Shown in pieces: positions 28,002-30,276 of a DNA stretch of 64,000 bases; within the stretch, counting starts at the first letter, position 1, and each line of letters starts with the position of its first letter. The translations under genes and the position numbers were made by a program. The notes under the pieces are model-generated. The model did no database searches and was not told the DNA's origin. It worked only from the letters and a program-made list of their open reading frames with translations. Source of the stretch: an uncultured Parachlamydiaceae bacterium (GTDB taxonomy: Bacteria; Chlamydiota; Chlamydiia; Chlamydiales; Parachlamydiaceae); contig CAVULX010000002.1 of the NCBI GenBank assembly GCA_963742415.1, positions 1 through 64,000 of the forward strand. Reading direction: 5' to 3'.

Positions 28002-28559
28002 CTATAAATCCGTAGATTCTTCTTTTGATTGTTGTCCCTGTTTTGATGCCTCTTTCTTTTTTTTGGCTCCTGGGGCCAAAACGACCGATAACGCACGGCC
28101 AAGCATCTTGGGCGATGATTCAGTCATCGCAACATCTTCCAAGGAATCACAAATCCTTCGGACGATCTTTTCCCCATATTCGATATGCATCATTTCCCGA
28201 CCACGGTACGTGCATGTTATCTTGACCTTATTTCCTTTAGCAATAAAGTCCCGAGCATGCCGGATCTTGGTCTCCAAATCGTGATTATCGATGTTAGGCT
28301 TCAGCTTAATTTCTTTAACTTTAGCCTGATGCTGAGCTTTTTTGCTCTCTTTCTCCCGTTTTGTTTGATCGTATCGGAATTTACCGAAATTAATGATTTT
28401 ACAAACGGGTGGATTTGACCCCGGGACAATTTCTACAAGATCTAACCCTGCCTCATCCGCTCGAGCTAATGCCTCGTGAATCGGCAAGATCCCTATCTGC
28501 TCCCCGGTTTGGCTAATCACACGAACTTTTGGCGCTCTAATTTCTCTATTAAATTTCAA
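28002..28559 (-). CDS. infC: Translation initiation factor IF-3 (TTG start)
   Basis: NREIRAPKVRVI, LDLVEI, KEIKLKPNIDNHD, YRGREM. Confidence 0.98.
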   Translation of the reverse strand: MKFNREIRAPKVRVISQTGEQIGILPIHEALARADEAGLDLVEIVPGSNPPVCKIINFGKFRYDQTKREKESKKAQHQAKVKEIKLKPNIDNHDLETKIRHARDFIAKGNKVKITCTYRGREMMHIEYGEKIVRRICDSLEDVAMTESSPKMLGRALSVVLAPGAKKKKEASKQGQQSKEESTDL

Positions 28560-30276
28560 CCTTTTTTATCTCTCCTTTTTGAATTCCTGCCAAGCCTTTT
28601 AATTCTCCTTGCAGGTGTTCAAGGAATTGTTCTAACCGCCATAGGTGCATCCGTTTAGCAGCCGCGCAAAAACGGACGCAGAGAACCCCTTCGTTGGCCT
28701 CTTTGTCCCCTATGACGGCGACATAGGGAACTCTTTCCTGTTGTGCAGCATGTACTCTGCTGTCCAATTTTTCTTGCGAAAGATCGAGCGTCCCCCTAAT
28801 GCCTGCTTCCTTGAGATGCTGGAGCGCCTCTTTGGCACTCTGATAGTGTCTTTCCCCTAGAGGCAGAAAGCGCACTTGTTCAGGGGCTAACCAAAGGGGA
28901 AGCCATCCATCATAATGCTCTAACAGCAAAGCGGTCATCCGTTCAATGGAGCTCATTAAGGCTCCATAGAGCATTATTTGCCAAGGCAGGGACTGCTTTT
29001 CTTTCCCGTTTTTCGCATGGGGCAACACATGTTGCCAATCAATGCCTAATGAGGGTCCAGACCATCCATGTCCATATGTGTCAAAAATCTGCGCCGTGAG
29101 CATAGGTCCTTCTACTGCCTCATTTAATGGATCTTCAATCCAATCCAAGTTGCATGCTTCTGCAGATTTTTTAAGCCAATGGACAGCTTGCTTCCATTGG
29201 GCTAAAGTGCCGGCGGAATAATAATTACGGATAGCAACTAAATTCCACTGGTGCTTAAAACCAAACATCTTAATTGTTTTATCAAAGAATTGCAAGGAAT
29301 AAATCAACTCCGAGAGAACTTCCCTTTCTTGGCAGAACACATGCCATTCATCCCCTCTATACAAGGGTGTTTGTAAAAGACCCTGCCAGTGTTGGGGTGG
29401 TAGCGGCTTCCATCTTTCAGCTAATTCGGCTAGGCGTACGGGAGAATTGGAAGAATCAAAAAAATGGCGGGCGATAGAAGCGTGGGCTTCTCCCCGGGAA
29501 GGAAGGGGTTGGAAAGAGGCGCCGTTGAATTTGACTTCGTTTTCTGAAGGAGGGGGTATTTTTACAGGTTGCAAGTTTGGAGTTGCAACCTTGAGGAACG
29601 TCGATTCGCCTAAGGCTTTTTTCCACCAATCGACCAATAAATCTTGTAACAAGACCCCCTTTGGCAGCCAATAGCGGGTTGGGTCTGCTCCCCTGCAAAG
29701 TTTCATTTCTTCAACAATAAGACGATGATCTTTATTTTTTGCGCTTTCATATTTTTTGATCGCGGTTTTTAAAGATTGTTTTTCCGAGCTTACGATCCCT
29801 TGAATCCGTAGGGTTGAAAGCTCTCCGGTGGAAGGAAAATAAGAAACTTGGGGAGATAAAGAAATGATTTTGATCCATCCCGCCTCTTTGACCTCTGAAG
29901 GGAGGGACAGTAACTTGGCTAGCGGGCAATAGTCTTTAAAATTTTTGATTTCTATGAGTGGAATGGTTTTGTCAGGAAGCTCCAAAACACATTTGGCTGC
30001 GATCGATTGACCCCAATGGGCCAAGTAAGCTGATCCGTTTTCTCGCATCATTTCTGTAATTTGAATCGAAGGATTTTCTTTGATTAAGCTGCGGACAGCT
30101 TCTTCGATGAGGGGGATTTCCTGTATGCCGATGGGATGGGGTGTCGAGATGTCGCACAAAAATCCTGTCTCAGTAGGGGTATGGGAGACAGATTGGCTTC
30201 CGGGAAAAAGATGGCAGATAGCCGCAGCTAAAAGCTCCGATGCAACGAGATGTTGTCCAAAAGGTGTGTTAGTCAT
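28549..30276 (-). CDS. Degenerate threonyl-tRNA-synthetase-like protein
   Basis: ThrRS domain order is recognisable (GF..D, IEE..R.LI, RIQG, KDHR, WLPKG, SIER...LLEHY.G.LPLWLAPEQV, VIGDKE) but the catalytic motifs are altered. Confidence 0.85.
   Translation of the reverse strand: MTNTPFGQHLVASELLAAAICHLFPGSQSVSHTPTETGFLCDISTPHPIGIQEIPLIEEAVRSLIKENPSIQITEMMRENGSAYLAHWGQSIAAKCVLELPDKTIPLIEIKNFKDYCPLAKLLSLPSEVKEAGWIKIISLSPQVSYFPSTGELSTLRIQGIVSSEKQSLKTAIKKYESAKNKDHRLIVEEMKLCRGADPTRYWLPKGVLLQDLLVDWWKKALGESTFLKVATPNLQPVKIPPPSENEVKFNGASFQPLPSRGEAHASIARHFFDSSNSPVRLAELAERWKPLPPQHWQGLLQTPLYRGDEWHVFCQEREVLSELIYSLQFFDKTIKMFGFKHQWNLVAIRNYYSAGTLAQWKQAVHWLKKSAEACNLDWIEDPLNEAVEGPMLTAQIFDTYGHGWSGPSLGIDWQHVLPHAKNGKEKQSLPWQIMLYGALMSSIERMTALLLEHYDGWLPLWLAPEQVRFLPLGERHYQSAKEALQHLKEAGIRGTLDLSQEKLDSRVHAAQQERVPYVAVIGDKEANEGVLCVRFCAAAKRMHLWRLEQFLEHLQGELKGLAGIQKGEIKKVEI

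Follow-up and report, generated by a model that had tools for sequence, protein, structure and literature searches.

The gene that stands directly before infC in an uncultured Parachlamydiaceae bacterium was analyzed and found to be an intact paralog of threonyl-tRNA synthetase (ThrRS) that has lost its catalytic residues. The gene lies in the window, i.e., the 64,000 nucleotides at positions 1 to 64,000 of contig CAVULX010000002.1 (assembly GCA_963742415.1), whose numbering is used throughout. The open reading frame (ORF) at 28549..30276 of the minus strand encodes 575 amino acids, is free of stops and has a single possible start, an ATG. The marks of a pseudoenzyme derived from an aminoacyl-tRNA synthetase (aaRS) were all encountered: homology to an aaRS, loss of catalytic residues, a true enzyme in the same genome and a pattern of substitution that points to purifying selection. 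We consider it probable, with moderate confidence, that the product is a full-length, non-catalytic protein of ThrRS fold, and that the locus is kept both for this protein and for a promoter-like element inside its frame. An earlier note on this DNA had described an intact 575-codon frame with tRNA-Val upstream and an overlap with the start of infC, and had read it as a pseudoenzyme; the observation was confirmed, and the pseudoenzyme reading is supported as far as it could be tested. The gap between tRNA-Val (anticodon GAC) and the ORF is 30 nt, and the overlap is 11 nt if infC begins at the TTG at 28559. The gene and its parts are as follows.

28549..30276, minus strand: ThrRS-like pseudo-synthetase ORF (P0001), from the ORF list, profile matches and AlphaFold/Foldseek
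29752..30276, minus strand: N2 (editing-domain-like) part, codons 1–175; HxxxH lost (L10, E14), Cys117 kept
29995..30054, minus strand: motif E75-M-M-R-E-N-G...H87..Q90...A94 in the N2 part, from conservation in 162 paralogs
28882..29751, minus strand: class II catalytic-core-like part, codons 176–465; without the zinc Cys, H511, the motif-2 Arg, D383, K465 and Q484; motif-3 GS.ER kept
28597..28881, minus strand: anticodon-binding domain (ABD, HGTP_anticodon), codons 466–560, from Pfam PF03129

Fold and Loss of the Active Sites

The NCBIfam thrS equivalog model TIGR00418 spanned the paralog end to end (positions 4–563 of 565), with a score of 213.9 bits, below its cut-off of 383.65 bits; in a genome-wide search, the same model gave 212.3 bits for the paralog versus 643.7 bits for the canonical copy. 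Only the ABD was recognized in the Pfam scan (PF03129, 2.3e-12). The best sequence matches in the PDB were ThrRS, with residues 76–634 of the E. coli enzyme (1qf6) pairing with residues 13–561 of the paralog (HMMER), and since this alignment begins at residue 76, the TGS domain is absent. An AlphaFold model built with 30 family members as input (pLDDT 88.6, pTM 0.83) was compared with the PDB by Foldseek, and the top matches were all ThrRS, with TM values of 0.60–0.75 (query length) and 20–22% identity. The parts of the ThrRS fold, namely the N2 editing-like domain, the class II core and the HGTP anticodon-binding domain, were present in that order. The best preserved was the ABD, as had been claimed earlier, with 27% identity to the canonical ThrRS of the same genome, followed by the core (23%) and N2 (18%); it was also the most conserved domain relative to the nearest ortholog, L152 (60% identity). 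The ABD columns kept in the paralog include the equivalents of E. coli E600 and R609, which are anticodon contacts in that enzyme.

Catalytic and editing residues were mapped by HMMER against 1qf6 and by MAFFT, the latter in an alignment that included 56 canonical ThrRS, namely 29 chlamydial sequences, one from Clostridium and 26 from metagenomes. The residue numbers are those of E. coli (C334, H385, H511, R363, R520 and others). Of the 133 columns at least 95% identical in the canonical ThrRS, 57 were retained in the paralog (11/31 in N2, 39/92 in the core and 7/10 in the ABD). The earlier note had stated that the zinc-ligand motif, motifs 2 and 3 and the editing motifs are rewritten, and this list was correct in substance, although two residues given as rewritten are conserved. 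The zinc motif has lost its Cys (C334 to G262, with no Cys throughout residues 255–270), but the ungapped register QPLPSR proposed for it was two residues off. Motif 2 has lost its Arg (R363 to K290) but keeps the equivalent of H385 (H312, in GDEWH), the one of the three zinc ligands that is left. Motif 3 has lost H511 (to Y437) but keeps the equivalent of R520 (R446, in IERM). The editing site has neither the HxxxH (H73 to L10, H77 to E14) nor the His of the CxxxH (H186 to L125), but its Cys is kept (C117). Further replacements in the core were D383 to E310, K465 to M392 and Q484 to G411. HxxxH and CxGxH/CxxxH are described, in the excerpted text of a study of the editing domains of ThrRS and AlaRS (ThrRS-Ed and AlaRS-Ed), as an identical zinc-binding motif, universally conserved in AlaRS-Ed, and the editing Cys as crucial for proofreading in both (PMC12003907). 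Judged by these residues, the paralog is predicted to be no longer capable of threonine activation or Ser-tRNAThr editing by the known chemistry.

The loss of catalytic and editing residues is family-wide, not local. None of 19 syntenic paralogs kept the equivalents of C334, H511, D383, Q484 and H77, whereas those of R363, K465 and N333 were kept in one and that of R520 in 17. Similarly, among the best 150 matches of a family profile in 1.84 billion representative proteins, 143 held at most three of C334, R363, H385, H511 and R520, and the remaining seven, canonical proteins of 639–757 amino acids, held all five. The motif-3 Arg was kept in 128 of the 143 dead-type representatives and the H385 equivalent in 50.

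The active thrS that the earlier note had expected elsewhere in the genome (2.69 Mb, 4 contigs, 84% complete) was located on contig 3 by a profile search (match G000:C3:433562-435232, 643.7 bits against the cut-off of 383.65). This ORF of 642 amino acids comprises TGS, SAD, class II core and ABD, with no catalytic residue missing; relatives have canonical ThrRS that are 59–75% identical to it, and the paralog is about 26% identical to canonical ThrRS. A match at E ≤ 1e-30 was present in 160/160 genomes, with canonical-type frames among the matches, and in these searches all paralog-bearing genomes also had a canonical thrS. Aminoacylation is, on these matches, predicted to be done by the separate canonical thrS.

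Distribution and Selection

A paralog-type gene was found at the same place in all 18 loci compared from relatives (L006–L023), with tRNA-Val(GAC) directly upstream and infC and rpmI directly downstream in 18/18, rplT in 17/18 and uvrC inside the upstream flank examined in 9/18. The frame was open in 17 of these loci, and one of the 18 paralogs has an internal deletion. Identity to the paralog of the window was 28–38%, and that of infC in the same loci 49–77%. The nearest relatives, whose contigs were found through uvrC, were metagenome-assembled genomes of Parachlamydiaceae, the closest being L152, with an ortholog 49% identical; the closest database protein was 38% identical, and a search with the paralog in named genomes returned only two distant canonical ThrRS. 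The family comprises at least 143 clusters at 50% identity, counted among the best 150 representatives. By profile score, a paralog-type N2 domain was counted in 84/160 species-level genomes of the order, namely those in which the N2 match exceeded the best score reached by any frame of canonical length (84.1 bits). Stable short forms of 386–400 amino acids in other chlamydial families (L172–L175, from genomes G169, G149, G067 and G104) keep N2 and stand directly before infC. Between the stop codon of the paralog and the start of infC, the spacing ranges from −11 to about +180 nt, and strict translational coupling of the two genes was on this account ruled out as a conserved feature.

The genomes compared included none from the genus to which the window belongs, dS was saturated in all pairs and several Nei–Gojobori (NG86) dS values were undefined; because the synonymous sites were saturated, only the proportions of nonsynonymous and synonymous differences (pN and pS) and a rough omega were usable. 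For the paralogs of the window and L152, pN was 0.33 and pS 0.745, with a rough omega of about 0.11, and the domains gave pS and pN values of 0.81 and 0.36 (N2), 0.75 and 0.37 (core) and 0.67 and 0.24 (ABD). The dN of the paralog in this pair was 0.44, versus 0.17 for uvrC and pheS and 0.09 for infC. In four same-genus pairs from other lineages, the paralog presented pN values of 0.30–0.37 and pS values of 0.73–0.80, and its dN was 0.38–0.51, compared with canonical ThrRS values of 0.12–0.15, obtained from two of the four pairs. Conserved residues were written with varying synonymous codons: six for R78 and for R157, four for P25 and for G160 and four for A81. Because pN lies well below pS and the conserved residues vary in their codons, purifying selection on the protein is, as far as such comparisons reach, at work throughout a large chlamydial family. 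Both halves of the corresponding expectation in the earlier note, syntenic orthologs in other Chlamydiae and a dN/dS below 1, were thereby borne out, pN being well below pS in all pairs and domains and omega being rough under the saturated dS.

The former editing domain contains a near-invariant motif (EMMRENA) that is new and fixed in the paralog family. In 162 paralogs, M76 was conserved in 99%, N80 in 98%, H87 in 87%, A94 in 85% and M77 in 83%, versus 0–10% of 63 canonical ThrRS for the same residues; ten positions in all were conserved in the paralogs only. Versions of the motif are retained in the forms that lack the ABD and in the short forms. Since its synonymous codons vary (R78 six, A81 four), selection on EMMRENA acts at the protein level.

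A Promoter-Like Element Inside the Frame

One segment of the gene was conserved beyond what the protein requires. Synonymous-codon identity, in a sliding comparison of pairs with the same amino acid, was 0.8–0.9 at codons about 320–340, versus 0.42 for the whole gene, and Leu328 was encoded by TTG in 18/18 loci. The segment contains the following element.

29267..29304, minus strand: DNA-level conserved element ATTTATTCC, codons about 325–337; −35 TTGCAA at 29295–29290, spacer of 17 nt, −10 TAAGAT at 29272–29267

The DNA consensus of the element was ATTTCTTCC TTGCAA, 17 nt, TAnnAT. In 18/18 loci there was no variation in the TTGC of the −35 or at −10 positions 1 (T), 2 (A) and 6 (T), and the amino acids encoded over the −10 hexamer vary. 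A 23-mer of the element matched once in the window and in none of 100 shuffles, and the 11-mer CCTTGCAATTC was present once per locus in 29 loci, all of them paralog loci, and absent from the 146 others. Ten further paralog loci carried the element at an identical codon position, and 3/4 of the short forms (L172–L175) an internal TTGCAA/TTGAAA...TAnnnT; at the homologous place the element was absent from 9/9 chlamydial canonical thrS and from 9/9 thrS of Kiritimatiellota, Lentisphaerota and Verrucomicrobiota (together PVC below). Part of what looked like conservation of the protein, the stretch LISSLQFIDK, reflects this DNA-level element. A reading of the element as RNA structure was discarded, RNAalifold giving 0 pairs. 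A −35/−10 pair conserved beyond coding needs thus lies within the synthetase-derived gene upstream of infC, and it is read most simply as a promoter of the sigma-70/66 type, about 740 nt before infC, that probably drives infC-rpmI-rplT. According to the excerpted text of PMC6511841, transcription of E. coli infC starts at P0 and P0', both inside thrS, and also at PthrS. The presence of the element inside the frame offers a cis-acting reason, absent from the earlier note, for keeping the locus. In a consensus scan of 27000–31000, promoters and terminators were no more numerous than in shuffled sequence, and the scan found no terminator from the paralog to infC.

A second promoter-like site was observed upstream of the tRNA gene.

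30405..30433, minus strand: promoter-like site upstream of tRNA-Val; −35 TTGAAG at 30433–30428, spacer of 17 nt, −10 TAAGAT at 30410–30405

This site had 8/12 consensus matches and was not called by the stricter scan. In 18/20 loci, the 80 nt that precede the tRNA contained a TTGnnn-16/18-TAnnnT pattern, mostly 41–53 nt before it; this is a raw count of a loose pattern and is suggestive only.

Origin

Catalytically complete ThrRS that lack the TGS domain (556–584 amino acids) were frequent in Kiritimatiellota, Lentisphaerota and Verrucomicrobiota, as they were in many further phyla. In 9/9 PVC loci, the TGS-less complete thrS stood directly before infC, and in one of eight scanned loci (L072) tRNA-Val(GAC) preceded the active gene, about 400 nt away. 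Since PVC TGS-less thrS precede infC, once with tRNA-Val, the dead paralog has the architecture and the position of the native PVC thrS, while the working chlamydial enzyme has a TGS domain and another locus. TGS-less ThrRS also scored higher against the paralog (about 184 bits) than chlamydial canonical ThrRS (about 129 bits). The paralog would accordingly be viewed as the positional descendant of an ancestral tRNA-Val-thrS-infC gene. In a quick site-heterogeneous IQ-TREE analysis of 72 rows, from which L013 was left out for its stop, the paralogs formed a single, long-stemmed clade (support 100), and the chlamydial canonical ThrRS a separate one (99); the paralogs branched with other bacteria (98), without a specific sister relationship to the PVC sequences. 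A tree uniting the paralogs with the chlamydial canonical ThrRS was not rejected by the approximately unbiased test (p 0.283). Displacement of a native thrS would be the more economical story, and the paralog may instead have originated in an old in-phylum duplication. A look for a ThrRS-operator-like leader before the canonical thrS gave no convincing candidate, the fold of L001:1100–1310 being dominated by the terminator of the preceding gene (z −2.04).

Possible Roles and Alternative Explanations

On the preferred reading, the paralog would act without catalysis, as a binding protein of ThrRS shape, probably a dimer, in which the remodeled N2 domain together with the remnant of the core would be essential. 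The best single guess is that it binds a tRNAThr-like RNA or the co-expressed translation machinery, and its gene would double as carrier of the promoter of the infC operon, like P0/P0' inside E. coli thrS. Binding of a tRNAThr-like RNA fits where the ABD is present, since the columns presumed to contact the anticodon are kept. The repeated loss of the ABD rules this domain out as the center of the conserved function, and the stepwise series of reduction, from full length through ABD-less and 386-amino-acid forms to loss, points to N2 as the part that matters.

Several observations weigh against this reading, some of which also favor an unlikely alternative, that the gene is a relic kept for its DNA: the protein would be functionless and the gene slowly decaying, and the frame would remain open because the promoter-bearing region between tRNA-Val and infC is transcribed and translated, stops causing polarity or upsetting coupling. 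The paralog evolves about three to four times faster than the canonical ThrRS; the ortholog in L013 has a single in-frame stop (TAA); the ABD is absent from 4/18 syntenic orthologs and 15/150 best representatives; the forms of 386–400 amino acids lack both the ABD and the whole stretch from motif 1 through the zinc site to motif 2; and six small genomes of 1.0–1.2 Mb in family f35 have a canonical match only. This pattern of loss and fast change could also fit the slow decay of a dispensable gene. Repeated truncation, internal deletion, the stop and full loss (in G028, tRNA-Val lies about 245 nt before infC), the fast nonsynonymous change and the element within the ORF, which explains the most conserved "protein" motif, are what a relic would show. 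Yet in each domain pN does not reach half of pS, and this holds even for N2, far upstream of the element; the near-invariant family-specific residues use many synonymous codons; the short forms retain N2, which a promoter does not need; and the spacing from stop to infC varies so much that strict coupling is not conserved. Also to be set against the preferred reading are the completeness of the source genome (84%), the tree, which is compatible with both a displaced native gene and an old duplicate, and the promoter assignment, whose entire basis is consensus and conservation, with 8/12 consensus matches that fall below the threshold of the stricter scan.

Less probable than the relic is a dedicated regulator split off from ThrRS. 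The E. coli ThrRS both charges tRNAThr and represses translation through a tRNA-like element of mRNA, and in the paralog N2 with its EMMRENA motif and the scaffold might sense tRNAThr or threonine status and control the IF3-L35-L20 operon, whose promoter would lie within its own gene, or the canonical ThrRS; if so, environmental chlamydiae would have moved the non-catalytic job of ThrRS to a second protein of the same shape. Next after binding of RNA or of the translation machinery ranks a partnership with the canonical ThrRS, and as an explanation in its own right it is doubtful, placed below the regulator: the paralog would pair with the enzyme through the class II dimer interface, or otherwise bind it, and adjust its activity, its stability or its editing. 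The fold of the class II core is indeed kept, with the motif-1 Pro in 18/19 paralogs and the motif-3 GS.ER in most; every paralog-bearing genome searched also has a canonical thrS; and precedents are given, in the excerpted sources, by the T1/T2 heterodimers of Anabaena and by "prozyme"-type dead paralogs (PMC9437257, PMC4787780). Much of the core, including motif 1, is nevertheless deleted in the short forms, and identity between paralog and canonical enzyme is low, as given above. That the paralog is still an enzyme, either a zinc-free ThrRS or an aaRS-like ligase for another substrate, is very improbable, even though its fold is intact, the motif-3 Arg is widespread in the family and the H385 equivalent persists here and in about a third of the dead-type representatives. 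The motif-2 Arg, zinc Cys, H511, D383, K465 and Q484 are missing here with no conserved replacement at those columns, members with the whole motif 1–2 region deleted persist, and the score falls below the NCBIfam cut-off.

Relation to Known Systems

HisZ, a HisRS-like regulatory subunit, is a known non-catalytic paralog of an aaRS. Like HisZ and the SerRS-like SLIMP, the chlamydial paralog keeps an aaRS fold, has lost the residues of aminoacylation and appears to be retained under selection beside the real enzyme; unlike them, it derives from ThrRS. Table 1 of a review of aaRS duplications from 2022 includes SLIMP, and for ThrRS this review gives, in its excerpted text, the T2 of Anabaena and the mammalian ThrRS-L, both active, and no dead ThrRS-derived paralog (PMC9437257). 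Anabaena T1/T2 and the mammalian ThrRS-L (TARSL2) resemble the present case in that a second ThrRS-type gene stands beside the housekeeping one, but they are catalytically active, whereas the active site of the paralog family is lost; according to the excerpted sources, T1 and T2 can form mixed oligomers (PMC9437257, PMC4787780, PMC5909460). With the bacterial ThrRS of E. coli (1qf6) and S. aureus (1nyq/1nyr), the paralog shares the N2-core-ABD order, the fold, the place before infC-rpmI-rplT, the motif-3 Arg, the H385 equivalent and several invariant ABD residues; it differs in lacking TGS, catalytic residues and the editing HxxxH, in its identity of 20–26% and in co-existing with a true thrS. 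The TGS-less ThrRS of PVC and other phyla have the length, architecture and position of the paralog, but they keep all catalytic and editing residues and have neither EMMRENA nor the internal TTGCAA element. The E. coli thrS-infC-rpmI-rplT operon offers the same gene order and, in the excerpted account, a promoter-like element within the thrS-derived frame (PMC6511841), with the differences that the host gene here is a dead paralog and that its element, about 740 nt before infC, is paralog-specific and known from sequence alone.

In the literature searched, whose coverage left subscription journals outside, a dead ThrRS paralog was described neither for Chlamydiae nor for any other bacterium, and the ThrRS paralogs encountered there were all active. 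Non-catalytic relatives of aaRS are known for few families, and the present family is a large and old ThrRS-derived addition to this class. Its coding sequence is constrained at two levels, as protein and as promoter-like DNA. Some members are already labeled "threonyl-tRNA synthetase" among JGI names, which would inflate counts of functional thrS duplicates, and cultured Parachlamydiaceae make the questions raised by the paralog testable.

Neighboring Genes and Other Observations

The paralog is preceded by uvrC and the tRNA gene and followed by infC, rpmI, rplT and pheS, in that order.

30307..30382, minus strand: tRNA-Val (anticodon GAC), from ARAGORN; Rfam tRNA at 30308–30381, 66.7 bits
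28002..28559, minus strand: infC (initiation factor IF3), candidate TTG start, 11-nt overlap with the end of the paralog ORF
27790..27987, minus strand: rpmI (L35), from the ORF list and locus comparison
27412..27768, minus strand: rplT (L20), from the ORF list and locus comparison
26093..27121, minus strand: pheS, from the ORF list and locus comparison

The candidate TTG start of infC, whose overlap with the last codons of the paralog spans 28549–28559, is the only in-frame ATG, GTG or TTG that yields a full-length IF3, and it stands directly after an in-frame TAA. The infC of E. coli starts at the unusual codon AUU. In the Rfam scan of 25500–31500, the tRNA alone was above threshold; a plant-miRNA identity for two long hairpins, suggested by sub-threshold matches, was rejected as generic hairpin likeness. 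One of these hairpins is an inverted repeat at 27180–27394, in the spacer between pheS and rplT, with 81-nt arms that are 91% complementary and 53 nt between them. Another inverted repeat, at 30504–30664 between uvrC and tRNA-Val, has 46-nt arms (96% complementary, 69 nt between), which hold the short internal direct repeat CAGGATAAGCAAGAT.

Of five loci whose upstream region was scanned, L177 and L179 are not counted, owing to their minus orientation. Two loci represent end states of gene loss. In L178 (G028, a 1.2-Mb genome), the segment 1178–1498 has tRNA-Val(GAC) close before infC and the paralog is gone. In L180 (G038, 0.8 Mb), a faint N2-like relic (21% identity, E 6e-6) was seen at 35–526, about 1 kb before infC.

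Elsewhere in the window, a 41-nt unit is repeated four times in tandem at 23233–23397 (90–100% identical), with a small palindrome in each copy, TTGCGCGA...TCGCGCAA. A 52-nt direct repeat occurs in two copies, at 52067–52118 and 63932–63983, which are 75% identical and 11.9 kb apart.

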